This document shows positions 1 through 13,527 of a stretch of 64,000 nucleotides of DNA, in pieces (the stretch's first letter is position 1; every line of letters starts with the position of its first letter). Both the position numbers and the translations under genes were made by a program. The notes under the pieces are model-generated. The model ran no database searches. It saw only the letters and a list, made by a program, of their open reading frames with translations, and was not told the origin of the DNA. Origin of the DNA: a virus. The DNA is taken from positions 11,066-75,065 of IMG/VR virus record IMGVR_UViG_3300033064_003457, one strand, 5' to 3'.

Positions 1-574
1 CAGCCAGGCAACCAAGATTCTCTAGAACATCAACATAATTTTGTGGACCCAACTCTAGCATTGTCTTGTTAACCACAGACATAACACAGACTCTTACTCC
101 TGCCATGCGTAGTTCTTTAACATTCCTAAATAACTTTTTGTTGTATTCTTCTCCGCGCATTAATCCATCATAGCTGACAGCTGACAATTCTTCTCCATTA
201 CTCTTTTCTGACATATATTTTAATAGAGATATCCAACCGTCATTCATTTTTTGCAATGACGTATATATATCAAAGACAGCGTTGCTATAGAATTCTTCTA
301 TGTTTGTTAGCATAGACCTTATGTACTCTGGAGATAATGTTTGTGGCTCAGCTCCATACAGAGTGAACTTAATCCTGTTCCATTTTGACCTATAATCTTT
401 CATTGATTCCAAAAGATTTCTAAGATCAGATATAGACATGTCTGAAGACTTATCCTCCTTAGACATAGCCTTAAGATAACAAGATGGGCAATTATTAAAG
501 CATCTGTATGTTATCCATAGGTGGGGATTAAAGTATCCTGTTTCTATGCTTAGTATCGGTTGAGACGTAGCCAT
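1..574 (-). CDS. Radical SAM enzyme 3 (runs off the left window edge; absent from ORF track)
   Basis: Manual translation from ATG 574: MATSQPILSIETGYFNPHLWITYRCFNNCPSCYLK...FTLYGAEPQ...AVSYDG..., open to position 1. CxxxCxxC motif plus GAEP variant of GGEP. An in-frame GTG at 583 overlaps the upstream stop. Confidence 0.9.
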   Translation of the reverse strand, partial: MATSQPILSIETGYFNPHLWITYRCFNNCPSCYLKAMSKEDKSSDMSISDLRNLLESMKDYRSKWNRIKFTLYGAEPQTLSPEYIRSMLTNIEEFYSNAVFDIYTSLQKMNDGWISLLKYMSEKSNGEELSAVSYDGLMRGEEYNKKLFRNVKELRMAGVRVCVMSVVNKTMLELGPQNYVDVLENLGCLA

Positions 575-579
575 GTCTA

Positions 580-1674
580 TCACGAGCAGTACCCCTCGTC
601 TCGTATATAGTTTTTTATGTAATTAGAAAAACTATCGTTATGTTGAATGTGGTGAGATATAACAGAAAAAAAACTTTTACTCTCATAGCATTCCTTACTC
701 TGACAGCACCCGCCATTGCAAGCTGGGAAGAATTCACACTCCATGCATTCCTTTCTTTGGAATCTTTCTCTTATGGCCATGTCTCTTCTTTTGGTAGAAT
801 TAGCAAAATCACTGAAGTTATCATCAAGTGTGCATATTGGATTATCTTTACTAGTATTGGGGCAGGTGCCAACAGTCCCATCAGAGTTTATTGTCATAAC
901 AGTCAACATACAATCGCGACCAGAACAACCGATATATCTCCCATCAAAAAAAGATTTTGCTTTACGTACAATCTCATTCTTAGGAAACTTTGTATACAAA
1001 TTACTTTCTATCAAGTAGTTAGCAAATTCTGCTTTCCATTCACCGTAGCGCTTGGTGTCTATTGCTATTTTATTCCAGTTTTTATCGGCCAGTCCATTCC
1101 TTGTTACCGGTTCAAAATGAAAACCATATATATTATTATCGACAAGAAAATGTATTAAATCTTTAGGCTCATTCTCTCTGATATAATCGTTCGATAATGT
1201 TATAACTAAATACACATCTAACCCATCTTTCTTACATTTTTTTATATTTTCTAACCAGACCTTTTCATGGCGCTTGTCTTTGTTAACAAATCTAATTCCA
1301 GGAGAGTATGATGTTCCAACTTGACCATTTAATCTTTTCTTTATAAAATTAACCAATGGAGTATTGTACATCAATAGATTAGTCTGTATAGAAAAATCCA
1401 TGTCCAAGAACGGTAGCGATGATTTTATAGTCTTATATATGTTTTCTAGTTTTTTTACTCCTAGCAATGTTGGCTCTCCGCCATGGAACACAACATCTAT
1501 AAACATACCCTGCCTATTCTTATCTATGTATTGTCCCATGGATGCCAAGAATGGACTTAATCTTTCTTCTTCCAATACAGAGCTTGTGTCCCCCGATGCA
1601 TTATAACAATGCAAACACTTAAGATTGCACTGCTCAGTTGGTTTTATGTATAGTGTCATCCTATTTTTTAACAT
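580..1674 (-). CDS. Radical SAM/SPASM-domain peptide/protein maturase
   Basis: CNLKCLHC, FHGGEP, QTN; C-terminal SPASM-like cysteines CSGRDC...GTC...CMECEFFPACNGGC...C. Confidence 0.93.
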   Translation of the reverse strand: MLKNRMTLYIKPTEQCNLKCLHCYNASGDTSSVLEEERLSPFLASMGQYIDKNRQGMFIDVVFHGGEPTLLGVKKLENIYKTIKSSLPFLDMDFSIQTNLLMYNTPLVNFIKKRLNGQVGTSYSPGIRFVNKDKRHEKVWLENIKKCKKDGLDVYLVITLSNDYIRENEPKDLIHFLVDNNIYGFHFEPVTRNGLADKNWNKIAIDTKRYGEWKAEFANYLIESNLYTKFPKNEIVRKAKSFFDGRYIGCSGRDCMLTVMTINSDGTVGTCPNTSKDNPICTLDDNFSDFANSTKRRDMAIRERFQRKECMECEFFPACNGGCCQSKECYESKSFFSVISHHIQHNDSFSNYIKNYIRDEGYCS

Positions 1675-2578
1675 ATGATATCCCCTTTAATTTTGAAAAG
1701 AACCGCTTTGCAGATTCACAATAATTTGTATCATCATAGGATTCAACCATCCAGTTACGTATTGTACATCCCCTACACAGATTAAAGTGATCGCATATAA
1801 AACACTTCTTTGGTATATCATATTTTAAGTCTTTTCTCTCTTTTCTCATGTCACCCATTACTGGACATGGGTACGAAGAAAAGTCTGTCTCTATATTAAC
1901 CATTACATCATCATTGATACATGTTTTTATGTATGGGCAGATATCGTTTCCACCTTTTAGTGAGTTAAGTATATTTGTAAACGGCTGTATTTCATGGAAC
2001 CCACTCTCTATCCATGCATCTATCAATCTAGTATATATATCAAACACATCTGAAACTTTCAATATTCTTTCTTTGTGCCTGGCGGCTAGGCCAGATGGAA
2101 CAATATAGTTTATCTTTAGTGGAAAATCCTTTGCTATAGAGCTACTTACCCATTCTTCTGCTTTAAGCAAAGATACGTTCTTGTTGGTATCTAATACTAT
2201 TAGGACAGGCGGTGAGTACCCAACCACTTCCCTAACCATCTCGTATGCAGTAAAAAAATCAGCCACGATATCAAACTTGTCACCACTGACTGACAGTCCC
2301 TGGAAATTTTTATGTGTTAGCACGCAATCCCACGAAGAGTCATATAGCATGATGTTTGACTGCAAAGAAAACTTAAGCCCCTTATCCAGTAGTTCTGAGT
2401 AATATTCAGGAGGTAGCATCATTGGCTCTCCCCCAATAAGAAGAACATTTTCTGACTTATATGTATCGTACAGTCTTACTATATCTCTCTGCTCTATGTA
2501 TCCGTCTCCACTAGTAGAACAAAACCAACATTTATTATTACAATTTAATACATTTTTAATAACTAAAAATTTATTCAC
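1661..2578 (-). CDS. Radical SAM enzyme with SPASM-like C-terminus
   Basis: CNNKCWFC, IGGEP, QSN; C-terminal CPYIKTC...PC...CFICDHFNLCRGC...C. Confidence 0.9.
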   Translation of the reverse strand: MNKFLVIKNVLNCNNKCWFCSTSGDGYIEQRDIVRLYDTYKSENVLLIGGEPMMLPPEYYSELLDKGLKFSLQSNIMLYDSSWDCVLTHKNFQGLSVSGDKFDIVADFFTAYEMVREVVGYSPPVLIVLDTNKNVSLLKAEEWVSSSIAKDFPLKINYIVPSGLAARHKERILKVSDVFDIYTRLIDAWIESGFHEIQPFTNILNSLKGGNDICPYIKTCINDDVMVNIETDFSSYPCPVMGDMRKERKDLKYDIPKKCFICDHFNLCRGCTIRNWMVESYDDTNYCESAKRFFSKLKGISYVKK

Positions 2579-3533
2579 TTCTTACCTCTATAGGGAAAAG
2601 ATCCCGCTTGCTTTTGCAGTTGCTTGTTATTACATAATTGCCATCCTTTAATACGCTTAATATATCGCTATCCGACATCCCATCGATACTGTCAATGTGC
2701 ACTGGCTGTTTTTCATTGTTATTAATGTATCTTTCTGTAAGTAATGAATAGTCTACTGTAGGAGCCAAAGCATTTATTACCATACCCTTAAATATTGATA
2801 TAGCATAGTCAAATTTCTTGTCTGTAGGATATGCTCTATATGGATTGTACTTCATGTCTCTCATCACAAAAGCTAACGGAACATACAGCCCTGATTTAAT
2901 TCTATATTGGCAATCTTCTATCTTGCTATTATTGTTGCCAGAATGATAGTCGTATGCCACATCAAAAAGATACTTACAGTGGTGCTTAAAATCATCCACG
3001 AATTGCCTATTGGTATCTATCATGTGCAGTAGCATCCACTTGGACCATTCGTTGATAAATTCAAAAGTATACTTATCTTTTATGTAAGTATAATATATGA
3101 ATTTGTTTAGCACAGTACTTACTATTTCATCCCACTTATCAAATATGTCTATATCATAAAAATGTCTCATGTACAAAGCATATAGTGATACTAGAACTAT
3201 TATTTTTGCCGGATAAACTATCTTCTTCATATCTGTATCTATGTAACTTACAAGCAATTCTTCCATTTGACTGTCTGTGACATTCTTTATTAATATATTA
3301 ATATTAATATTATTTGACAGATTTATAATATGTCTTCCTGACAGGTCAAGGCTTTCGAACTCAGCAAACGTTGTATTTAGTGCATTGCTGTTAGTCATCT
3401 CTAGCTCCAAGAGCTTCTCAAATATCTTATAGTCTATTGGATAATCTAGCTTTATTATGTAATCTGTGGCGTCGTTGTAGTGATTCATTAAATACGATAT
3501 CTTGTCTATATATTTTACCTTACTTTTTACCAT
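2571..3533 (-). CDS. Hypothetical protein, radical SAM cluster accessory
   Basis: 320-aa ORF overlapping both neighbours; no recognised motif. Confidence 0.7.
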   Translation of the reverse strand: MVKSKVKYIDKISYLMNHYNDATDYIIKLDYPIDYKIFEKLLELEMTNSNALNTTFAEFESLDLSGRHIINLSNNININILIKNVTDSQMEELLVSYIDTDMKKIVYPAKIIVLVSLYALYMRHFYDIDIFDKWDEIVSTVLNKFIYYTYIKDKYTFEFINEWSKWMLLHMIDTNRQFVDDFKHHCKYLFDVAYDYHSGNNNSKIEDCQYRIKSGLYVPLAFVMRDMKYNPYRAYPTDKKFDYAISIFKGMVINALAPTVDYSLLTERYINNNEKQPVHIDSIDGMSDSDILSVLKDGNYVITSNCKSKRDLFPIEVRSE

Positions 3534-3786
3534 TTATAACTATACCCCCATCAACCATATCAAACCCTAAGCTATCAATTTTTCTAGACAAACTGTCAGG
3601 TATCTCTGAGTTTATTTGTATCTTAATACTATTAGCTATACACTCAACATCAAAACTAATATTATCGCTCTTTAGCAATTGTACTAGAAATGTTATCTTT
3701 ACTATCTGGCTATTAGTAAAGCTATCATAGCTGTTATCAATACAATCAAAAAGCTTATTTTCTAATTCATAAATTTTCAATGACAT
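3520..3786 (-). CDS. Small hypothetical protein (88 aa), radical SAM cluster
   Basis: ATG at 3786; overlaps flanking ORFs. Confidence 0.6.
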   Translation of the reverse strand: MSLKIYELENKLFDCIDNSYDSFTNSQIVKITFLVQLLKSDNISFDVECIANSIKIQINSEIPDSLSRKIDSLGFDMVDGGIVINGKK

Positions 3787-4216
3787 CAATTATCTCCCGT
3801 TGATAGTAAAATAATTCAACAGTCTCATCTGTTGACTTTCTTTCTTTCCTTATAACGTCACCACACTCTATTACGTTTTCACCATATTTTTTAATCTCAG
3901 ATTTATAGTCTTCAAGATTAGATACTATGGTAATATTGTAATCCCTAATACTTATCGGCTTAAGCCTTACAAGACTCCTTAGGGTATATTCATCGCCGTC
4001 TTTGCTATGGATAAAAGGCATTGAGTAAAATAGAGATTCTACTAAAACAAGAAGTAGTCTGGCCCTTGACCCACTGTTTAGATACTGGTGGGTAATGACC
4101 TCTTTTAACTTAGGTATAAATTCATCATCTACGTATGCTGCGTTAGCAGGACAATACTCAGTCCAGGTGTCTATTGTTGGTATCTTATTGTTAGGCCAAA
4201 GTAAAATTAGTCTCAT
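3767..4216 (-). CDS. Hypothetical protein (149 aa, MRLILLWP...)
   Basis: ATG 4216 forms an ATGA overlap with the upstream stop; preferred over the ORF-track start at 4354. Confidence 0.7.
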   Translation of the reverse strand: MRLILLWPNNKIPTIDTWTEYCPANAAYVDDEFIPKLKEVITHQYLNSGSRARLLLVLVESLFYSMPFIHSKDGDEYTLRSLVRLKPISIRDYNITIVSNLEDYKSEIKKYGENVIECGDVIRKERKSTDETVELFYYQREIIDVIENL

Positions 4217-5136
4217 CGTATGGGCCTCGCTTCTTCTGGTGCTTTTCCTAAAGGATAATAGCTTAAAACAAATAACTGCATTTCGTCTACAGGTATATGT
4301 GGTCTTGATGGTACGAACACAAGAAAGTTCCCATCTATCCCTCTGCTTATCCATCTAGAGAAAACATCCTTTTTTAATCTAACTAATATGCTGTCAGTTT
4401 TTTCTGTATAGAATAATCCAGTTAAACTGTCCAAGACCTGTAATATGGCTCTTGGTTTATAATATTTTTTGAAATTATTTTTAATCTTAACGTAATAATC
4501 TCTGCCCATTGGTCTATAGTAAACAGATCCTTCCTTGATCACGAATGAACATATCATGGAATTAAAGTTTACACACATATTTAGTCCATGGTCATTATGC
4601 ATTTTTATCAGTTCTTTTTCTCCATCCTTATCGTGAGCTAGTACTACATGAAGAGCCGTCCTATTTATCTTAAGCTGGTCTATTGGTATTTCTGTCCTCA
4701 TATATGTATGGTCTACTGGTGCGGCATATTTATCTGCCTTTTGTGCGTAGTGAAAAAATCCATGCTGGAGTATCTGCATCGGTAAATTGCAATAAAATAA
4801 TGACAAATTTTCCTTTGTAAACGTAGATAACTTAAATGGCTCTTCCCACGAAGATAAACTTGGACCGCTTATTCCATCATCCCTAACCTCTAGTAGCCTA
4901 TCCCATCCATCTTTATACCATTGCCAACAAACCTGGAACCAGTTGGCGAACATATCAAAGTACTCGAAATTTCTTGGTGTAAAGTCTAGATTAAAGTACT
5001 CTACAGCATCATCGTTTTTATCAACGTCAAAGTGAGACCATACTCCTTCATCTATTTTTTTCATGGGGACTCTATCTTTGTCACCACCGAACAATTGTGT
5101 ATAGTAATCTGCTAGTTTTGTAAATTTTTCACTCAT
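4213..5136 (-). CDS. Hypothetical protein (307 aa, MSEKF...)
   Basis: ATG 5136 lies 2 nt after the stop of the Cys-rich gene; aromatic/His-rich; no family recognised. Confidence 0.7.
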   Translation of the reverse strand: MSEKFTKLADYYTQLFGGDKDRVPMKKIDEGVWSHFDVDKNDDAVEYFNLDFTPRNFEYFDMFANWFQVCWQWYKDGWDRLLEVRDDGISGPSLSSWEEPFKLSTFTKENLSLFYCNLPMQILQHGFFHYAQKADKYAAPVDHTYMRTEIPIDQLKINRTALHVVLAHDKDGEKELIKMHNDHGLNMCVNFNSMICSFVIKEGSVYYRPMGRDYYVKIKNNFKKYYKPRAILQVLDSLTGLFYTEKTDSILVRLKKDVFSRWISRGIDGNFLVFVPSRPHIPVDEMQLFVLSYYPLGKAPEEARPIR

Positions 5137-5138
5137 TG

Positions 5139-5699
5139 TTATCTTTTGCCTCTCTTGCAACTAGAGTAACAGCTAGAATGACAGCTGGAATGACACTCGC
5201 TTATTACTATATATTCAGTCCCTGCACTTGGAAAAAGAGTAGTGTTGTGTATGGCACATCCATCAACTATTATTTCTAATATATCCCTAGATGGACTTAA
5301 TACTATATTTTGTATCTTGCCACCTGCTACTGGTGCTGTTATGTACGCTGGAATGGCAGTGGTAAAGCTTCCATCCCTTCTGCCTTCAACATCACTAGAG
5401 ACTGCTGTCCTTCCATAATTCCATTCTCCGCTGGAGAGTCTCCTTCTACAGCTATCATATTTTCTCATGAAATTATATTTTGTTACAATACCATCGCTAT
5501 CAGAGAAGTGAGCTGCACGTATTGCTATGCCAGAAGTTACTGTTCTGCTAACAGTAGTTTGTGTCGACTGTAATAGAACAGACGGAGTTATAGTGCCAGT
5601 AGTAGAAGATATGTTAACATTATTACAGCTAGTAATAAGGTTATTTAATGTTCCTCTCGCAGAATTCCAATCTGTCGCTGATACTTTTCTTACAGACAT
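5139..5699 (-). CDS. Putative radical SAM target: virion-like protein with C-terminal (C-[H/Y]-S-S)3-C-KRGKR
   Basis: GGAGG SD; Ser/Thr-rich body with GIAIRAAH fibre-like motif; 12-nt repeat at 5157-5195 encoding CHSSCHSSCYSSC; upstream of three radical SAM genes. Target role is inferred. Confidence 0.7.
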   Translation of the reverse strand: MSVRKVSATDWNSARGTLNNLITSCNNVNISSTTGTITPSVLLQSTQTTVSRTVTSGIAIRAAHFSDSDGIVTKYNFMRKYDSCRRRLSSGEWNYGRTAVSSDVEGRRDGSFTTAIPAYITAPVAGGKIQNIVLSPSRDILEIIVDGCAIHNTTLFPSAGTEYIVISECHSSCHSSCYSSCKRGKR

Positions 5700-5714
5700 A
5701 TATTTCCTCCGTTA

Positions 5715-6014
5715 TTAGTATACAGGACCCTGTTCAGCCTCTATATATATTCTTTTCTCAAATCTTTTTTCATAATCGTATAATTGGTTACGTAGATCAA
5801 ACATGCTATCGCTATACCCTGACGGCATTATGTACCCAGAAGACAGCACTTCAAGGCTATCTCCGGTGGACGTTAGCTTATCATATGATGTCCGTAGATC
5901 AACCAATATTTCTGACAGCGTTGAGGCTATTTTGCTAGACTCTGTTTTGCCATAGTAGGCATGGTTTCTCTTTGTCGTTGTCACTATGCTATCAAAGTTA
6001 TCTATAAAAGACAT
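5715..6014 (-). CDS. Hypothetical virion-associated protein
   Basis: 99-aa ORF in fibre region, GAGG SD. Confidence 0.65.
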   Translation of the reverse strand: MSFIDNFDSIVTTTKRNHAYYGKTESSKIASTLSEILVDLRTSYDKLTSTGDSLEVLSSGYIMPSGYSDSMFDLRNQLYDYEKRFEKRIYIEAEQGPVY

Positions 6015-6024
6015 TCTTAACCTC

Positions 6025-6648
6025 TTATTTTGAAGAACACAATACAGTTATCGCTGTGGCCACAGATAGCGTTATGTCTAGCCTATCCATACTCTTGTGT
6101 TCTATTGTTTTCGGATAAAATACTTCTCCAGCAGATGTGTCAAATACTTCTACCAGCGGATATACTCCAAGATTGTGATCAACCTGGAAAAAAGTGTTAG
6201 ATGAGTATTCTTGCGAAAAGTAACCGCTAGAAGCTGGTTGCCATGTTCCTGATCCTACAGCGTCTGCCGTAAGCACATATCCTGGAATGGCTGTGCCTCC
6301 TAGCTGGAACTCATCAGTATATAGATATTCAAATATTCCTGATGGAGCAAATACCCCATAGCTGAATATTCCAGAAACAGATTTTACATACTCTCCAGTA
6401 AAAATACCAGATCCGCCCATATCGTAAACACCAGACGGCGTATATATTCCATGAGTAAATATACCAGACGCACTATATACATCGGTGAATATTCCAGATC
6501 CTATATATGCATAGTCAAAGTATCCAGATGGAGCACTGAACGTATCGCATCCAAGGTGCCAGCATCTTACGGCCCTATCCTTCAGGTCACCATCTCGCTT
6601 TAGCATATGTTTAGAGAAATTATTTAATCTGTCTTGATACTCTGCCAC
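6025..6648 (-). CDS. Tail fibre-like protein with SG[IVY][FY] repeats
   Basis: Seven ~10-12 aa repeats; GYVLTADAVGSGTW fibre motif; C-terminal HNLGxxPxVxVFD domain typical of fibre ends. Confidence 0.65.
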   Translation of the reverse strand: MAEYQDRLNNFSKHMLKRDGDLKDRAVRCWHLGCDTFSAPSGYFDYAYIGSGIFTDVYSASGIFTHGIYTPSGVYDMGGSGIFTGEYVKSVSGIFSYGVFAPSGIFEYLYTDEFQLGGTAIPGYVLTADAVGSGTWQPASSGYFSQEYSSNTFFQVDHNLGVYPLVEVFDTSAGEVFYPKTIEHKSMDRLDITLSVATAITVLCSSK

Positions 6649-6649
6649 C

Positions 6650-8986
6650 TTAATACCCCAATTTTATAGTGTAAGAATTTAGTGTAGGCGTTGTTATCGG
6701 CGATGAATCATCGTTTCTTGATAATACAGCCTTTAAGTATATATCATTTGTCTGTGTAGATATATATTTGTATGACAACACATATGTCTCAGCCCCATCA
6801 GGACAAAGCATGTCATCTGAAGAAGAGGACCATAGTGACGTTTGTGGCTTATAGTTTACCACTATTTCTTTATTGCTATCGCCATCATAATCAATAACAC
6901 AGAACCTAGAGTGATTTGATTTTAATGTGTTGTTTTTCAACTCAAACCAGCTAACCTCTTGTAACTTCTCGGCATATGCAAATTGTCTATACACTTTTTG
7001 ATATAAATATTTGTCATCATTAACACTATAGAATCTATCATTATCTTCACGTGGCTCAGCAGTCGTTACAACTTTATGCCAGCCTGGTGGTATATGAAAA
7101 AATGTTTCTGATGACAGATCTATTATTCCCTCGGTTGTAGTTATAGTTGTAAAGTTTCCAGCATCTTGCTCTGCAACGGTAAATGGAGTTATGTTAATAT
7201 CTAGCCCATCGCTGTTCAATATATATATATATGTAGTATACTCAGTTGGCTCAGACTCTTCATCATCGTACTTATAGTCCACATATACAGTGTTTGATGG
7301 AGACTGTGGATCGTCCGATATATTGCTACCAGTAGTCTTAGTTATTATTTTTGTAGAATAGCTCACTTCATAATCACTAGAATTTACATATACATAGCCT
7401 GGATTTTCTCCAGGTTCGCTCTTAACTACGATAGAGCCCCTTATCAGTCCTTCACCATCTATGGCAGCAGAGGTAGGATATGTCAAAGTTATAGTGCTAC
7501 CGATATCAAACGAATGCTCTTCATTGTAAATAGCAACCCTCTTGACATCATACTTTGGAGTTACTTGCCAATTGTTTTTTCCTCTATAGATCTCAACGCT
7601 ATCTCTAACTGGTTCATACGGAAACTCATACACTTTATAAAAATCCACACCCTTATAAGACTCTAGAGTAGCCCCATAGCTAGACTCGTCCCACTGTATG
7701 TCTGGAACATTAGTAAAGAATGAGACATGTCTAAAATCAACAAGTTGCTGTTCTGTTGGTTCTTGTGAATTTACTGGACTAACTGAAACCCAATTATATT
7801 CTGTAGGATCATCCTCGCCTTCTTCACCAAGGGATAGGTAATAATCTATTTTTGTTTCTGGCTGTATATCCTCTTCTGTTATTAGCACAGCTTTATCTAT
7901 AGTACTTTCTTCTCCGGTAGGATCTTCCATTGTAAAAACATTGGAATATAATGTCGACGTTTTATTATAAGCCATCTCTAGGATTTCAATATTTTTAAAT
8001 CCCACCGTGTATAGGTATGTTGATATATTTTCACTAGCTGCCATCTGGTCTTCTATGTCCTTAGTTACTACAAACTTTAAATATTTTGCCCTTAGTTCCT
8101 CAAAGTTCCATATGGTTTTCTTGTTGTCAGTTACTAGCTTATTTCCTACACCATATCCGATAGGTAATCTCTTAAAGTTTATATTATCTAGCGACCATAG
8201 AGGTTCAACCTTCATGTGATTGGATGATTGCCCCCGCATCTCTATCCTAGAAATATATGTACCCATATCAAGCTTAGGTGTTAGGTCTACAATGAAAGAC
8301 ACCACCAAGGCCCCACCTTTTGTGCTAATTATGCTTTGTGCCCACGAAGTGTTTATGTCACTAAAGGCATAACCAAACTTGCTATCCAACATAAGATGGT
8401 TAGATATTATGTTGTCGGCATATTCTTCGTCTGCTAGTATTGGATAATTCACAACATCAAAGTAGTGTGACATGTCTAATTTTTTTATTCCTTGGCGACT
8501 TTCCCTCAGGGTTACTATCCCCGCGTCTGTATTGACTTCACAAGTAGAATATTCTAAGTTTATATTGCTTCTATCTATAAAACTATCATGAAATGAGTAT
8601 AGATAACCTTCAGTGTCCTCCGCTACCAACAGAAGATCATCAAGGTTTCCTTCCAGTTTTTTAATCTCATGCATAAGTTTTTGTCTTTCAGTGTCGTAAT
8701 AATCAAAATCTTCTAGTATTATAGTGAACTGATCTACTAGTTCCTCATACAGATTGTTTAAGTCATTGCTCAATTCTTTTAAGTTGTCATTGTACTTGTC
8801 AATATCCCATGCCTTCCTATAGTTTTGTGTGCGTAATTTGAACGATGGCATACCAACGCTTATCATTTTATAGAATTTGCTTAGTTGTGATACTATGTGC
8901 TCCATAGTCGGAACATAGCCCTCTTTCATTCTCTCTTCTATGATTCTATTGACTTCTTTTTTTACTTGTCTGGATGCTATACTCAT
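6650..8986 (-). CDS. Large virion structural protein (paralogue C)
   Basis: 778 aa; N-terminal GxPxxxLR...YN...E...DL and C-terminal TPxLxxY shared with the next two genes. Confidence 0.65.
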   Translation of the reverse strand: MSIASRQVKKEVNRIIEERMKEGYVPTMEHIVSQLSKFYKMISVGMPSFKLRTQNYRKAWDIDKYNDNLKELSNDLNNLYEELVDQFTIILEDFDYYDTERQKLMHEIKKLEGNLDDLLLVAEDTEGYLYSFHDSFIDRSNINLEYSTCEVNTDAGIVTLRESRQGIKKLDMSHYFDVVNYPILADEEYADNIISNHLMLDSKFGYAFSDINTSWAQSIISTKGGALVVSFIVDLTPKLDMGTYISRIEMRGQSSNHMKVEPLWSLDNINFKRLPIGYGVGNKLVTDNKKTIWNFEELRAKYLKFVVTKDIEDQMAASENISTYLYTVGFKNIEILEMAYNKTSTLYSNVFTMEDPTGEESTIDKAVLITEEDIQPETKIDYYLSLGEEGEDDPTEYNWVSVSPVNSQEPTEQQLVDFRHVSFFTNVPDIQWDESSYGATLESYKGVDFYKVYEFPYEPVRDSVEIYRGKNNWQVTPKYDVKRVAIYNEEHSFDIGSTITLTYPTSAAIDGEGLIRGSIVVKSEPGENPGYVYVNSSDYEVSYSTKIITKTTGSNISDDPQSPSNTVYVDYKYDDEESEPTEYTTYIYILNSDGLDINITPFTVAEQDAGNFTTITTTEGIIDLSSETFFHIPPGWHKVVTTAEPREDNDRFYSVNDDKYLYQKVYRQFAYAEKLQEVSWFELKNNTLKSNHSRFCVIDYDGDSNKEIVVNYKPQTSLWSSSSDDMLCPDGAETYVLSYKYISTQTNDIYLKAVLSRNDDSSPITTPTLNSYTIKLGY

Positions 8987-8989
8987 TTA

Positions 8990-11224
8990 TTATAGACCTC
9001 CGAAAGGATATATTTGTAATGCATACTTAGATAAAACTGGCGTATAGCTCTCTGCGTCAGCTATGGTTGTCGGTCTGCTAAGCACGGCCCTGAATCTTAC
9101 CTCATAAACAGGGTACCCTATGTCGACATAAGATAACGGGTTATCTCTGGCTTCTGGGCTTATATCAGAGTTTATATTAATTACCTCTGGTATATTGTTT
9201 ATGCCATCGGTGCTAATTGTAGTGCGATGATTTTTTGGTGATATCCTATACCACGTTGTACCATCGTCAGCCGATACATAGTACTTTATCCACTCATTTT
9301 CCGTGCCAGATAAACCAGCAGATGTATAAAATACCCTTGGTATCTGTTCATCTACAGCCAACGTTATCTTAGATATTGGCTTAGGAGAGGTGTACGGCTC
9401 AGAAACAACTTCGCTCGTTTCTGCAAACTTATAAGCATACATGTTAATGTCTCTTATCCCTATTGCGAATCTTGCTTTATCTTCTTTTGCTTTTACCCAT
9501 TGTCTTTTTATTGTCTGTGGACCAACAGTTGTTTCTGTCTTTTTTGACGAACCAAATAGTCCTCCTAACAATAAACCAGCTATCATACCTATTGGTCCAC
9601 CTACTAATCCGCCCAACATAAACCCAGCTATCCCACCAGCTGCCGCTCCAATAGTACTAGCTAACCCAGTGCTATCAGATCCTCCTATATCTATTGCGCC
9701 AGGCTCAAGATCTAGAACATCAAACCCGCAAACAAGACCTATTAGATATGGTATCTCTGCTGTCTTTTTTACTACCTGTGTTGACGTTGATGTTTTAGCT
9801 CCGCCAAAGAACTTCTTCTTTGTTGTAGTTGATGTTATTACTTGTTCTGTTTCTACCATAAGAACATCGTATGGTTTGTTGTATGACCTAGTTTGACGTA
9901 TAATAAATTTTAGACATTTTACTTTTCTTGCCGCAAATACCCATATGCCTTGTCCTGCGAATTTGAATCTGTCAGGTGCCAATGTATCTTTGACCATACT
10001 AGGTGTAAGTTCCTGGTTTGCTTCTTTTGTAAGAACAATATCATATTCATGGTCATCAAAACCTTCTAGTTCTTCAAACACTTCCCCGTCGGCAGAGGTT
10101 TGTATGGATAGTACTTCCATGTAAAGTTCTTTACCAAAGTTGTTAGGCAACAAGCTTATCCAGTTCATCTGCTCAGTTCTTTCTAGATGCACTGTAAAGC
10201 TAACAGAAAGGAACTCTCTGGCACTAGTTTCTGTTACTGGTATATAATCTTCTATAAGGTTACCATACTCTTTGGTTACTACTGTATCGCCAACTATCTC
10301 TATGTTTGGTGAGTTTATCTCATTGTTAACAAGTTCATTAAATTCAGCTGCAGTTATCTGGTCTCCACTGTATCTATTACGATATCCTTGGATTGGGTTG
10401 GTAACCATTTCTACTTCCCAGAATGTATCTGGGGTATCATCAAACATTTGCAACCTTCTTGCCATTAGAGCTTCTTCAGCTGCTCCATTCTCCCAAAGAG
10501 TTTTCCCATCTTCAGCGTATGATATGTGCCAATTTCCACCTTCTGGCCTAGACTCATTCTTGAGCCCGTAATACAATCCTTCATACCCTCCAGTCTGAGA
10601 ATGAGGGTTCCAATCTGGTATTGATTCTTGTATTCCTGTAACCTTTTCCACCAAAGGAGACCTGTTGGTGTTGCTTATTCTTTTTAGCGTTATAACTCCT
10701 TGATGTGAGATTAACTCTGCTTCTTGTGCCCCAGGAGTTATCTTACTGAAATCTATCTTACTATTATCTACAAGAGAATCTACCCCAAATATAGAATTAG
10801 ACTTTGCCCCCTCTGAATAGAATGAATAGTCTATAGATTTAGATGCTAGCTTCCTTACCTTATTAGTAAGCATTTGTTTTTCTATTTCTCCATAATTAAA
10901 GTTCTTTACCATAACAGAAGACAATGAATTTTCTTCAGCGTATCCCACACCTATATCATCATGTAATTCCTGCATAGTATCATTGTAGTCTCTTGATACT
11001 GGTGGAGATTCTTTTTTTTGATATCGTAGCTTTAATGTTGGCTTGCCAAGGTTAGAAAAAAAATCTTTGAATGCCTTATATAGCGCAGTAAATATAGAGT
11101 TTTCACTCTGAGTATCTTTTCTGTCTAGCTTATCTTTACGCTTAGCACTAATTACAGCCAGAAGATTCTCTGCTTTTTTTATATTTAATTTAGTGTCAGT
11201 TAATCTTAGGTATTCATTTCCCAT
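8990..11224 (-). CDS. Large virion structural protein (paralogue B) with internal glycine-zipper segment
   Basis: 744 aa; shared terminal motifs; GAAAGGIAGFMLGGLVGGPIGMIAGLLLGGLFG. Confidence 0.65.
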   Translation of the reverse strand: MGNEYLRLTDTKLNIKKAENLLAVISAKRKDKLDRKDTQSENSIFTALYKAFKDFFSNLGKPTLKLRYQKKESPPVSRDYNDTMQELHDDIGVGYAEENSLSSVMVKNFNYGEIEKQMLTNKVRKLASKSIDYSFYSEGAKSNSIFGVDSLVDNSKIDFSKITPGAQEAELISHQGVITLKRISNTNRSPLVEKVTGIQESIPDWNPHSQTGGYEGLYYGLKNESRPEGGNWHISYAEDGKTLWENGAAEEALMARRLQMFDDTPDTFWEVEMVTNPIQGYRNRYSGDQITAAEFNELVNNEINSPNIEIVGDTVVTKEYGNLIEDYIPVTETSAREFLSVSFTVHLERTEQMNWISLLPNNFGKELYMEVLSIQTSADGEVFEELEGFDDHEYDIVLTKEANQELTPSMVKDTLAPDRFKFAGQGIWVFAARKVKCLKFIIRQTRSYNKPYDVLMVETEQVITSTTTKKKFFGGAKTSTSTQVVKKTAEIPYLIGLVCGFDVLDLEPGAIDIGGSDSTGLASTIGAAAGGIAGFMLGGLVGGPIGMIAGLLLGGLFGSSKKTETTVGPQTIKRQWVKAKEDKARFAIGIRDINMYAYKFAETSEVVSEPYTSPKPISKITLAVDEQIPRVFYTSAGLSGTENEWIKYYVSADDGTTWYRISPKNHRTTISTDGINNIPEVININSDISPEARDNPLSYVDIGYPVYEVRFRAVLSRPTTIADAESYTPVLSKYALQIYPFGGL

Positions 11225-13527
11225 TATATTGTCCTCAATTTTAAAGTATAGTCTTTACAAATGGGTGTCTCCGATATATTTTTCCTTATATTGTTACGTA
11301 ATAGAGCTTTCAGCTGTATATAATCATTAAGGTATTTATATATTATTTTTATTTCCCTTCCGTCCAACGGAGTATTGAAATATACATTGTTCCCACTGTG
11401 AAAATATTCAAAATTTGGGTAGCTTGCGGCATTGTATGACGTAAGTGCTGGCCGTATATCATTATAATAGTCAGTTCTGTTCTCGGCAGCATGCCCATCA
11501 ACAGTTATTGTAAACATATCATAGTAAGATCCATATTCTATATCAAACTTATTAAAGCCACTCACGTTAAGCCATCTACCAGCCTCATACGAAAATCCCG
11601 GGCCAGACTTACCAGCCTGTGCTGTGTCGTTTATTACGTCGTAGTCTATATATGGATAGTGAGATAGCTCTATTTTGTATTGTCTTGTGGAGTTGTCAGT
11701 GAATGTTTCTTCAGTTTCTATTAGTGAATCATTAGCAAAGCTTACGACTACTCCGCTAGGAGTAACATCTGATGTTCCTTTTGGCTGATAAGAGATAGTA
11801 TATGATGCACTAGCGTTGTACCACCCAGAAGCAACAGCCACTGATCCATCAGAGCTAGAATATGTCCAATCAACAGCAGGCATATCCTCATCGTTCCTAT
11901 ACATGCCAACTGGGCTTGATTCTGCTGGGAACCGCAATATTCCTACCCTAGTAAGTGGGTCTATGTCTACTCTTTCTTTTGTTATATAGTGTCCAGATGG
12001 CAATATGTTCTTCCATTCATCTTTTCTTGTGGCTACCTGGTATTCTATTGACGCCCCAGACGGGAGAACTTCCACTGCGTCTAGTCTGGTTTCTAGGATA
12101 GCTCCATTGGCTTTGTATTGAGGACTTACATACTCCCCTCTCTCTAGATACCATATGTGCTTTATGTCTATATTATACGCTCCATATAGGTACTCGTATT
12201 TTCTTACCTCGATAAGTTCTTTGTCTGGATCATCCTTTTCTCGCAAAATATCCATAGACAATTCTTCTGCACCAACCTTAGACGCCTTTGTCATCTCTTG
12301 GGTGGTAGCTTTGAATATTGTCTTTGACATGCTGCTACCAGCACTATCTTCTGTCTTGCCCAACTCTTTAGTCTTTTCTTTATATTTTTCTATCTCATCA
12401 GTGTAAGCCCTGAACCCAGTTATGTAATCTATCATATCCTGTGTGGCTTGGATTGGGGCATTGGTAGATGTAGAAAGGGAATATTCCCTATCTACTATCT
12501 GTTGCCACATCTGAGCATTGTTTACTATATATTTTGGTATATTATATGTATTTATACTAGGATTTTTTTGGTTTATTACTATCCTAATCTCCTTGGCATA
12601 TATTTCTGTGAAATTAAATTCTATTGCCGATACAGATGTTTGTTCTGTTATATCTAGCTCTGACCAAGAGTCAGCGATTGCCTCTCTATATTCTATTTTG
12701 AATATCCTAAGCGGGTAGTTAGTGAATGGCAATATCTTTATATGGTTTATAGGCTCGGTCCTAAACAACCTTATTGTAACTTCGCATATGGTACCAAACT
12801 CTAAATTGCCATTATATATTTGTCGGATTGGTTCATCAGTAAGTATTACTTCGCCCCAGAATGTCTGCATGCTTTCGTCTATAGCTTTTTCCTTGCGGTG
12901 TTCCTCTGTCTCTAGCGTCCCCATTATACCGCCACCATATCTAGAGATGCTGATCTCTGCTGCAGCTAGTCCATTTATACTAAGGGTAGAATTGTCCATA
13001 CCAAATGGCAACTTCAGTGAATTTGTGTCTGTATCAATCCAAGCTTTATATGGTCCATCTTCTGCCTGATTATCATCCTTATAAAAGGTATTAAACTTTG
13101 CATCTGTTATCCCGGTCTTATTTTCTTTGATAACTTTGTATACCATTATGTCGTTTTCTACTTTGCGCAATGCCGACCTTACATCTCTTAACGTAGCGTC
13201 ATTGATGAGCTTATGTGTTTTTATGGTACGGTTTATAGTATTGTTTTGCTTGAACAAAGCCCCCAAATCAACATAGGCCTCTTCCATGGTATTATTATAA
13301 TCCACAGATGATACCTTACTATACTTTTCTGCTTTTCTAAGCTGTATCAACGGATTACCTAGAGGATTTTTAAGCTCAGCGACTAATTCCTCTAGTTTGT
13401 TTTGTAGCGTTTTATCGTCAGGAGACACACCAGCATCATCATACTTCGTTTTTAATATTTGAAGTAACCTGTCCTGTTGTATCTTAGGTATTATACTGTA
13501 ATATGATTCAATGTAAGATTTTCTCAT
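11224..13527 (-). CDS. Large virion structural protein (paralogue A)
   Basis: 767 aa; shared terminal motifs; located in tail/fibre cluster. Confidence 0.65.
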   Translation of the reverse strand: MRKSYIESYYSIIPKIQQDRLLQILKTKYDDAGVSPDDKTLQNKLEELVAELKNPLGNPLIQLRKAEKYSKVSSVDYNNTMEEAYVDLGALFKQNNTINRTIKTHKLINDATLRDVRSALRKVENDIMVYKVIKENKTGITDAKFNTFYKDDNQAEDGPYKAWIDTDTNSLKLPFGMDNSTLSINGLAAAEISISRYGGGIMGTLETEEHRKEKAIDESMQTFWGEVILTDEPIRQIYNGNLEFGTICEVTIRLFRTEPINHIKILPFTNYPLRIFKIEYREAIADSWSELDITEQTSVSAIEFNFTEIYAKEIRIVINQKNPSINTYNIPKYIVNNAQMWQQIVDREYSLSTSTNAPIQATQDMIDYITGFRAYTDEIEKYKEKTKELGKTEDSAGSSMSKTIFKATTQEMTKASKVGAEELSMDILREKDDPDKELIEVRKYEYLYGAYNIDIKHIWYLERGEYVSPQYKANGAILETRLDAVEVLPSGASIEYQVATRKDEWKNILPSGHYITKERVDIDPLTRVGILRFPAESSPVGMYRNDEDMPAVDWTYSSSDGSVAVASGWYNASASYTISYQPKGTSDVTPSGVVVSFANDSLIETEETFTDNSTRQYKIELSHYPYIDYDVINDTAQAGKSGPGFSYEAGRWLNVSGFNKFDIEYGSYYDMFTITVDGHAAENRTDYYNDIRPALTSYNAASYPNFEYFHSGNNVYFNTPLDGREIKIIYKYLNDYIQLKALLRNNIRKNISETPICKDYTLKLRTI

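Follow-up and report, generated by a model that had tools for sequence, protein, structure and literature searches.

A radical SAM cassette within a late structural operon

We analysed a 64,000-nucleotide stretch of viral DNA, referred to below as the window (IMG/VR record IMGVR_UViG_3300033064_003457; G000:C1:11066-75065), and focus on a nine-gene cassette at its start, in which a 186-amino-acid (aa) protein with a C-terminal Cys/His repeat is encoded next to four accessory proteins and four radical S-adenosylmethionine (SAM) enzymes (Table 1). We propose that this protein is a virion component whose repeat is modified by the adjacent enzymes. The 75-kb record runs 11,065 bases past the window start, has a CheckV completeness of 36% and belongs to a ~200-kb myovirus distantly related to Bacillus phage 0305phi8-36, present in freshwater and viral-fraction metagenomes. 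The pairing of a Cys-tail protein with adjacent radical SAM genes, pointed out in an earlier note on this DNA, proved real in both the open reading frames (ORFs) and the conservation of the tail; that note had counted three enzymes and four were found, of which the third is truncated at the edge of the window and the fourth lies outside it.

The minus strand holds every gene of positions 1-13,527, and from high to low coordinates the genes encode proteins of 767, 744, 778, 207, 99 and 186 aa, followed by the four accessory proteins and the radical SAM enzymes. The 767-, 744- and 778-aa proteins match phrog_20243, phrog_21108 and phrog_19683, respectively, all annotated as 'virion structural protein', and the 186-aa gene begins 15 nt past the stop codon of the 99-aa gene (5715-6014). 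Past enzyme 4 the virion genes resume with a 400-aa phrog_19670 protein and then a 788-aa fibre-like protein; terminase, portal, sheath and baseplate wedge genes lie elsewhere in the window. The 767-aa and 400-aa proteins are the counterparts of 0305phi8-36 ORF171 and ORF175, both virion proteins by mass spectrometry, and they flank the co-directional, tightly packed cassette. In 0305phi8-36 the ORF171-ORF175 span lacks the cassette and holds the virion structural genes ORF172-174 only, ORF175 following ORF174 without interruption, which indicates that the nine genes were inserted within a late structural operon. One further IMG/VR contig, L005, carries all nine cassette genes in the same order with 45-59% identity, and its flanking fibre genes are unmatched.

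Table 1 Features of the cassette and neighbouring genes (window coordinates, unless a position in the record is given)
Feature	Position	Strand	Basis
186-aa Cys/His-tail protein, candidate substrate and candidate virion protein	5139..5699	-	ORF list, homologue family, hhalign
Radical SAM enzyme 1, 305 aa, CNNKCWFC	1661..2578	-	PF04055 6.9e-6, phrog_1802 2e-13
Radical SAM/SPASM enzyme 2, 364 aa, CNLKCLHC	580..1674	-	PF04055 35.1 bits, TIGR04085 33.4 bits
Radical SAM enzyme 3, CFNNCPSC, N-terminal 194 aa in window	1..583 (gene 2-583)	-	cut by window edge
Radical SAM enzyme 4, 305 aa, CTGGCKFC	G000:C1:9647-10564 (outside window)		phrog_1802
Accessory protein 1, 307 aa (ATG 5136) or 315 aa (TTG 5160)	4213..5136 or 4213..5160	-	59% identical, syntenic in L005
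Accessory protein 2, 149 aa	3767..4216	-	52% identical to 150-aa L005 protein
Accessory protein 3, 89 aa	3520..3789	-	36% identical to 107-aa L005 protein; weak phrog_30658 match
Accessory protein 4, 320 aa	2571..3533	-	49% identical in L005
Upstream virion structural genes, same operon: 99, 207, 778, 744, 767 aa	5715..13527	-	phrog_19683, 21108, 20243

The C-terminal Cys/His tail is conserved

The 186-aa protein has the C terminus ECHSSCHSSCYSSCKRGKR, and its tail, CHSSCHSSCYSSCKRGKR, is encoded by codons at 5142-5195. Among ~5.8 billion clustered proteins we found 6-8 homologues, in all of which the tail cysteines and histidines are invariant; given this invariance, and the ORF-terminal position of a related motif in 118 of the 120 matches listed in the search described below, the tail is not a product of chance. 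The family of the window represents a rare four-Cys variant of a common phage motif, with the extra Cys inserted before the basic end. In an hhalign comparison its alignment with the main tail-protein family covered 114 columns, reaching from helix 2 to the tail, with a probability of 98%, and the first two helices occupy the same positions in the low-confidence model of the 186-aa protein as in the AlphaFold2 model of the main family. Judged by its tail and this remote profile match, the 186-aa protein appears to belong to the main class.

AlphaFold2 modelling from 60 main-family sequences yielded a confident alpha/beta domain (predicted local distance difference test score, pLDDT, of 85) with a disordered tail. 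The model found no meaningful match in the PDB (Foldseek and VIA-align, best Z 3.8), and a Foldseek search of BFVD retrieved a 296-aa protein of Agrobacterium phage Atu_ph07 with an E-value of 1.8e-6.

An iterated hidden Markov model (HMM) of the N-domain that seemed to reach all tail proteins turned out to be an artefact of the tail in the profile; trimmed of the tail, it reached its own lineage only. As a lead only, an ESM Atlas cluster near the 186-aa protein carries PF27846 on 25% of its members. Segments of the N-domain also match repeated stretches in two giant proteins, P0009 (3622 aa, 16 stretches) and P0010 (1368 aa, 8 stretches), as well as a single stretch in a phage protein of 696 aa (L006:8780-10870); a structural module common to these proteins, or similar composition, could account for the matches.

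Enzyme 2 is a SPASM enzyme near peptide- and protein-modifying families

All four enzymes contain the CxxxCxxC motif near the N terminus and are called as radical SAM proteins by Pfam, NCBIfam or PHROGs, enzyme 4 by its phrog_1802 match only. Against the PF04055 cut-off of 29.5 bits, enzyme 2 scored above, and enzymes 1 and 3 just below, at 26.8 and 27.6 bits. Enzyme 2 also exceeded the 27-bit cut-off of the SPASM model TIGR04085, which describes a C-terminal region whose seven cysteines serve two auxiliary 4Fe-4S clusters. The seven auxiliary cysteines of enzyme 2 are invariant in a 35-sequence alignment (A4). By eye, enzymes 1 and 4 contain SPASM-like Cys sets comparable to that of enzyme 2, in enzyme 1 within a Cys-rich C-terminal region, and enzyme 3, which is 366 aa in full length (G000:C1:10548-11648), has only four C-terminal cysteines. 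Enzymes 3 and 4 show 54% and 58% identity to their L005 counterparts.

Consistent with the expectation that the enzymes would group with peptide- or protein-modifying families rather than with nucleotide or cofactor families, enzyme 2 aligned over its full length with DynA (1.7e-34, residues 9-326), TIGR04083, anSME, YhhB and PapB. Given that it reached none of the family cut-offs, enzyme 2 lies outside all five families. The nearest solved structure matched the radical SAM core only, and a predicted complex of enzyme 2 with a 52-aa tail segment, three 4Fe-4S clusters and SAM gave an ipSAE of 0.00.

The tail and the enzyme co-occur across phages and in Bdellovibrionota

The co-occurrence of tail proteins with radical SAM genes, which the earlier note had proposed as a check, proved massive from both the enzyme side and the tail side. 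A search of IMG/VR with the enzyme 2 alignment returned eight distinct jumbo-phage loci, in seven of which a tail protein is encoded within a tandem array of radical SAM genes, with 10-15 radical SAM matches per whole record. These seven tail proteins are 186-277 aa long and end in (C[HY]xx)2-4 followed by a short terminal tail, either of the RxRR type or, in three loci, CARW. From the tail side, the exact DNA pattern C[HY]xxCHxxC[HY]xxRxRR-stop occurred in at least 120 IMG/VR contigs, and 118 of the 120 matches listed terminate a real ORF of 102-364 aa. In most of these matches the tail ORF has a co-directional CxxxCxxC gene at a distance of 0-45 nt, the exceptions being almost all short fragments. 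An earlier, looser DNA pattern was dropped, its matches being mostly off-frame simple repeats.

An enzyme 2 relative was detected by HMM in 100 of 131 tail-bearing loci and is directly adjacent to the tail gene in 76, and enzyme 1 has relatives in 49 other loci that carry a tail; enzymes 3 and 4 are almost confined to the lineage of the window. By N-domain, BLAST sorts the 154 tail ORFs into 13 clusters with no link between them; all share the same 16-residue tail, with the consensus (121 distinct tails) [VIL]-C-H-[SAT]-S-C-H-[ST]-[SN]-C-H-[GST]-S-R-G-R-R, in which Cys, His and Arg are essentially invariant, indicating that the tail itself is under selection. No match among GenBank phages was returned by megablast of the region or by tblastn with four tail-protein lineages; since the N-domains differ and the tail is masked, BLAST is blind to such relatives, and the cultured carriers surfaced through the DNA pattern only.

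The cultured carriers of the pair are the Ralstonia phages RSF1 and RSL2, the Burkholderia phages FLC6 and SURPRISE13, and Atu_ph07. In RSF1 a cupin gene (ORF069) and a SPASM gene (ORF070) precede the tail protein ORF071 (186 aa, ending in CHSSCHSSCHGSRGRR), which is followed by two further genes encoding proteins without assigned function and two radical SAM genes; homologues occur in RSL2, RsoM3USA, FLC6, FLC8 and SURPRISE13. The Atu_ph07 genes run gp172, SPASM gp171, gp170, gp169, radical SAM gp168, gp167, gp166 and radical SAM gp165, where gp170 is the tail protein (296 aa, ending in CHSSCHASCHNSRSRR, computed mass 31.89 kDa). As these carriers infect the aerobes Ralstonia, Burkholderia and Agrobacterium, the anaerobic host that the earlier note had read from the oxygen-sensitive enzymes fails as a deduction. 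In both RSF1 (ORF069, L260:7293-7829) and Atu_ph07 (gp172, L262:11063-11647), the gene directly upstream of the SPASM enzyme encodes a small cupin containing the metal motif H-x-D...H. Of the 131 loci, 65 have a cupin gene ahead of the SPASM enzyme, and none is present in the cassette of the window; the cupin may add an oxygen-dependent modification step in aerobic hosts.

Outside phage records, the tail pattern gave 47 matches in 185,579 species genomes, 39 of them real tail ORFs, with enzyme 2 relatives in 29 loci. About 25 of these ORFs lie in Bdellovibrionota (Bdellovibrio, Bacteriovoracaceae and Halobacteriovoraceae), on contigs of up to 2.8 Mb; the Bdellovibrionota loci (within L263-L309, e.g. 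L285, L306 and L283) carry (CHxS)3-RGRR tails, some on contigs of 1.3-2.8 Mb. These copies may be prophages or may belong to the attachment apparatus of the predator itself. The tail-enzyme pairing is not rare, occurring in considerably more than a hundred phage genomes, in several cultured phages that infect plant pathogens and in predatory bacteria.

Some phages carry multiple radical SAM genes and no such tail. The radical SAM cluster of Ralstonia phage RP31 lacks a Cys/His tail, and in Campylobacter phage CP220, which like CPt10 has 11-12 radical SAM genes (PMC2853527), no ORF ends in the tail, the one motif match lying between annotated genes. Such phages would fit an alternative in which the tail is an enzyme-free structural Zn/Fe clasp or a docking signal and the radical SAM genes perform unrelated nucleotide, cofactor or host-metabolism chemistry, as proposed for CP220. 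Phage fibres often use His-metal sites, which also speaks for a clasp. Nevertheless, the direct adjacency in 76 loci, the co-occurrence across 13 N-domain clusters and on Bdellovibrionota chromosomes, and the exclusively peptide- or protein-modifying character of the nearest enzyme families argue that the two are connected, and we regard an enzyme-free tail as quite improbable.

Three side observations concern further potential targets. The cluster of RP31 (ORF70-76, L261) is a different, four-radical-SAM cluster, and the 125-aa ORF70, two genes upstream, ends in ...SHTHYSPDGSY and may be another target type. The locus L129 (IMGVR_UViG_3300012979_000030) packs at least 15 radical SAM genes into ~24 kb; it also encodes, next to a paralogue, a 202-aa protein ending in a Cys-flanked poly-Ser run (L129:12583-13191), a possible second substrate. 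In addition, a 43-member family of short (~127 aa) tail proteins, arranged in tandem pairs in L139, L165, L173, L192 and ~20 further loci, is accompanied by a radical SAM clade outside the reach of the enzyme 2 HMM.

A tail protein of the class is associated with virions

In the published virion proteomics of Atu_ph07 (Attai et al. 2018, Table S5, PMC6102473), Gp170 is listed at 31,89 kDa with 8 unique peptides and 35% coverage, and this mass matches the computed mass of the tail protein exactly. Thus, one member of the tail-protein class is virion-associated. The same table omits the neighbouring enzymes and accessory proteins (gp165-169, gp171 and gp172), and gp170 opens the major structural gene cluster CDS 170-215 (PMC6102473). 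Gp170 was detected in gel fragments 1-9 and was most abundant in fragment 1, where proteins of 87-127 kDa peak, with proteins of 117 and 137 kDa peaking in fragment 2 and those of ~30 kDa in fragments 7-8 (PMC6102473, Table S5); these masses suggest that fragment 1 was cut from the top of the gel. Tryptic digestion of gp170 would leave a C-terminal peptide ending in CHSSCHASCHNSR. Virion proteomics of RSF1, RSL2 or FLC6 was not found in the literature searched, and the papers on RSF1-type phages and Atu_ph07 annotate the tail proteins as hypothetical and assign the enzymes to accessory or metabolic functions, drawing no link between them.

The virion list bears on a second alternative, in which the tail forms a metal or Fe-S site and the protein acts as a radical SAM helper (a cluster donor, reductant or scaffold), the true substrate being other virion proteins or a small molecule. 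Three invariant Cys-His pairs at i/i+4 do resemble a metal site, each SPASM enzyme needs up to three clusters, and the number of enzymes is not scaled to the number of repeats. However, an enzyme helper that is found in virions when the enzymes are not would be odd, the diverse N-domains of ~100-360 aa are unlike known cluster carriers, and no similarity to Isc, Suf or Nfu was found with Pfam or NCBIfam, making a helper role unlikely in our judgement, if conceivable.

The presence of whole gp170, at the coverage given above, also bears on a classical secreted RiPP (ribosomally synthesized and post-translationally modified peptide), with the 168-aa N-part as a long leader and the tail as a core released as a toxin or signal. 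A Cys-rich C-terminal core adjoining SPASM maturases would suit such a system, and long leaders occur in other RiPP classes. By contrast, the N-domain of the main family is predicted to be a confidently folded alpha/beta domain, and no peptidase or exporter was found in the cassettes of the window, L005, RSF1 or Atu_ph07. A canonical RiPP cluster would combine a short leader-core precursor with a recognition element, a leader peptidase and an exporter. For the cassette of the window, the lack of a visible transporter or peptidase that the earlier note had reported held up in searches of Pfam, PHROGs and NCBIfam, which also returned no PqqD-like match. We therefore consider secretion of a released core very improbable.

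Comparison with known radical SAM systems

The nearest catalogued kind is the CXXX-repeat system (TIGR04114 target 'tSAM_targ_Cxxx', TIGR04115 maturase and TIGR04116), which likewise pairs a C-terminal Cys at every fourth residue with an adjoining radical SAM/SPASM gene, the target there being curator-inferred. To our knowledge, this system has a bioinformatic definition and no experimental characterisation. The tail of the window scored 11 bits (E 0.099) against the 18-position repeat model TIGR04114/PF27846, for which the cut-off is 20 bits, and no TIGR04114 match was found in G001, G003, RSF1 or Atu_ph07; against TIGR04115 (cut-off 350 bits) the scores reached 18.6 bits in the phage's own genome and at most 36 in four other carriers, and TIGR04116 gave no match. 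Unlike the CXXX-repeat targets, the carriers here are folded proteins of ~100-360 aa with a His after each Cys and an RGRR end, are encoded in phage structural regions and include one member found in virions.

Among the NCBIfam families, DynA/DarE and the triceptide enzymes (YhhB, AmcB, FxsB and GrrM) include the best-scoring ones for enzyme 2, with DynA at 119.3 bits against the 450-bit equivalog cut-off of NF041298 and YhhB at 3.4e-18. DynA joins a His to the beta-carbon of the residue at i+2, a spacing that H-S-S of the tail also offers, and DynA and the triceptide enzymes are the best functional analogy for the His-x-Ser unit. In contrast to these systems, no leader peptide or export genes are present here, and the candidate substrate is a whole protein. 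That a SPASM enzyme can act on a whole protein, at Cys or Ser residues, has precedents in anSME and in QhpD, the latter working on the QhpC subunit. anSME was the third-best family for enzyme 2 (1.1e-20; 74 bits against the TIGR03942 cut-off of 349), the C/S-x-P/A-x-R motif is absent from the tail, and a G001 enzyme showed a weak QhpD-family match; unlike the anSME and QhpD targets, the candidate target here is a phage particle protein.

The suggested HMM comparison with SPASM, His-Xaa-Ser and ranthipeptide maturases gave a divided result, in which enzyme 2 passed the SPASM model and the cut-offs of the other two were missed. A His-Xaa-Ser system is defined by paired HxsB and HxsC over their cut-offs together with HxsA and HxsD; here, HxsB (TIGR03978) reached 43.5 bits at best against 370, and HxsC (TIGR03977) 14.6 bits at best against 268, with E-values of 0.012-0.064. 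For the ranthipeptide/SCIFF maturase PapB (NF047865, cut-off 340 bits) the score was 52.8 bits, and the tail contains no Asp or Glu at i+4, the ranthipeptide definition including C-x3-D/E acceptor motifs in the substrate.

As a large phage with several radical SAM genes, the phage of the window resembles CP220, CPt10 and the phiKZ-like phages RSF1, RSL2, FLC6 and SURPRISE13, and the RSF1-type phages share its pairing of tail protein and SPASM enzyme, there in the order cupin, SPASM enzyme, tail protein. Literature searches combining radical SAM with phage virion, RiPP, CXXX repeat or jumbo phage yielded no description of the system, which is undescribed in the literature searched and probably represents an undescribed chemical finishing of a virion part.

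Proposed modification of a virion protein

Taking these observations together, we infer that the 186-aa protein is a late, virion-associated protein whose invariant C-terminal Cys/His repeat undergoes post-translational modification by the radical SAM/SPASM enzymes encoded next to it, a reading to which we assign a probability of roughly 0.55 and which is probably the best supported by the gene association and the proteomics of one class member. During virion assembly, the SPASM enzyme would bind the exposed, disordered tail, abstract hydrogen atoms via 5'-deoxyadenosyl radicals and install covalent links within each C-H-x-S unit. The links could be His-centred i-to-i+2 bonds of the DynA/triceptide kind, Cys thioethers, or both, and the product may be a rigid, protease- and heat-stable knob, possibly metal-binding or cross-linking, that locks the protein into the particle. 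Within this reading, and with the same slight preference, enzyme 2 would be the conserved core enzyme, and the other three enzymes and the four accessory proteins lineage-specific additions.

Several points weigh against modification of the tail. The earlier note's idea of a modified virion protein has gained the virion association of gp170, and modification itself has so far been observed nowhere; moreover, the virion evidence concerns gp170 of Atu_ph07, a class member, rather than the window's own protein. The Atu_ph07 virions were purified with polyethylene glycol, and Table S5 includes a few non-structural proteins, mostly identified by a single peptide. Because the loading buffer as described contained no reductant, disulfides could explain the high apparent mass of gp170. 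The link of the 186-aa protein to the main family is weakened by the tail itself, which contributes part of the hhalign score, and by the poor AlphaFold2 model of this protein (pLDDT 47), and the 296-aa BFVD match agrees with gp170 in length only. Finally, the number of radical SAM genes, from 1 to ~15 per phage, does not scale with three Cys-His units, and typical RiPP precursors show the opposite of the arrangement here, an invariant core joined to variable N-domains, which would also fit a metal-binding or docking motif.

A broader proposal, which we regard as tentative and rather doubtful, is that jumbo phages and Bdellovibrionota share a virion-building chemistry, in which a SPASM enzyme turns the (C-H-x-S)3-RGRR tail into a cross-linked knob that staples a small protein to larger particle components, and the 4-15 extra enzymes of some phages add further radical cross-links to virion proteins. 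Such stapling would account for the peak of the 32-kDa gp170 in the uppermost gel slice.

Modification of the tail, if real, would be the first RiPP-type radical chemistry known to mature a phage particle protein. It would assign a role to radical SAM genes of jumbo phages that have so far lacked an explanation and would point to a new kind of device for covalent virion stabilisation or adhesion, while the short, invariant, enzyme-addressable tag could serve protein engineering. Given that RSF1, RSL2, FLC6, SURPRISE13 and Atu_ph07 are in culture and that virion mass-spectrometry data exist, the hypothesis is directly testable now.

Accessory proteins and neighbouring genes

All four accessory proteins are confined to the lineage of the window and lack a detectable family in Pfam, PHROGs and NCBIfam, accessory proteins 1 and 4 without any match in these databases. 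The start of accessory protein 2 overlaps the upstream stop codon, and the 195-aa ORF listed for it starts too early, as judged by the L005 relative. Accessory protein 3 has the size of a stand-alone RiPP recognition element (RRE)-like peptide-recognition protein, for which it is a candidate by size alone; as none of the four can be placed in a family, an RRE may be present among them.

Upstream of the cassette, the 207-aa protein (window 6025-6648) contains six [AGPV]-S-G-[IV]-[FY] repeats, and its C terminus matches small virion-protein PHROGs. By eye, a primase-helicase of 1243 aa encoded outside the window (G000:C1:152-3883, L004) appears to carry an intein-like insertion whose middle part resembles a homing endonuclease.

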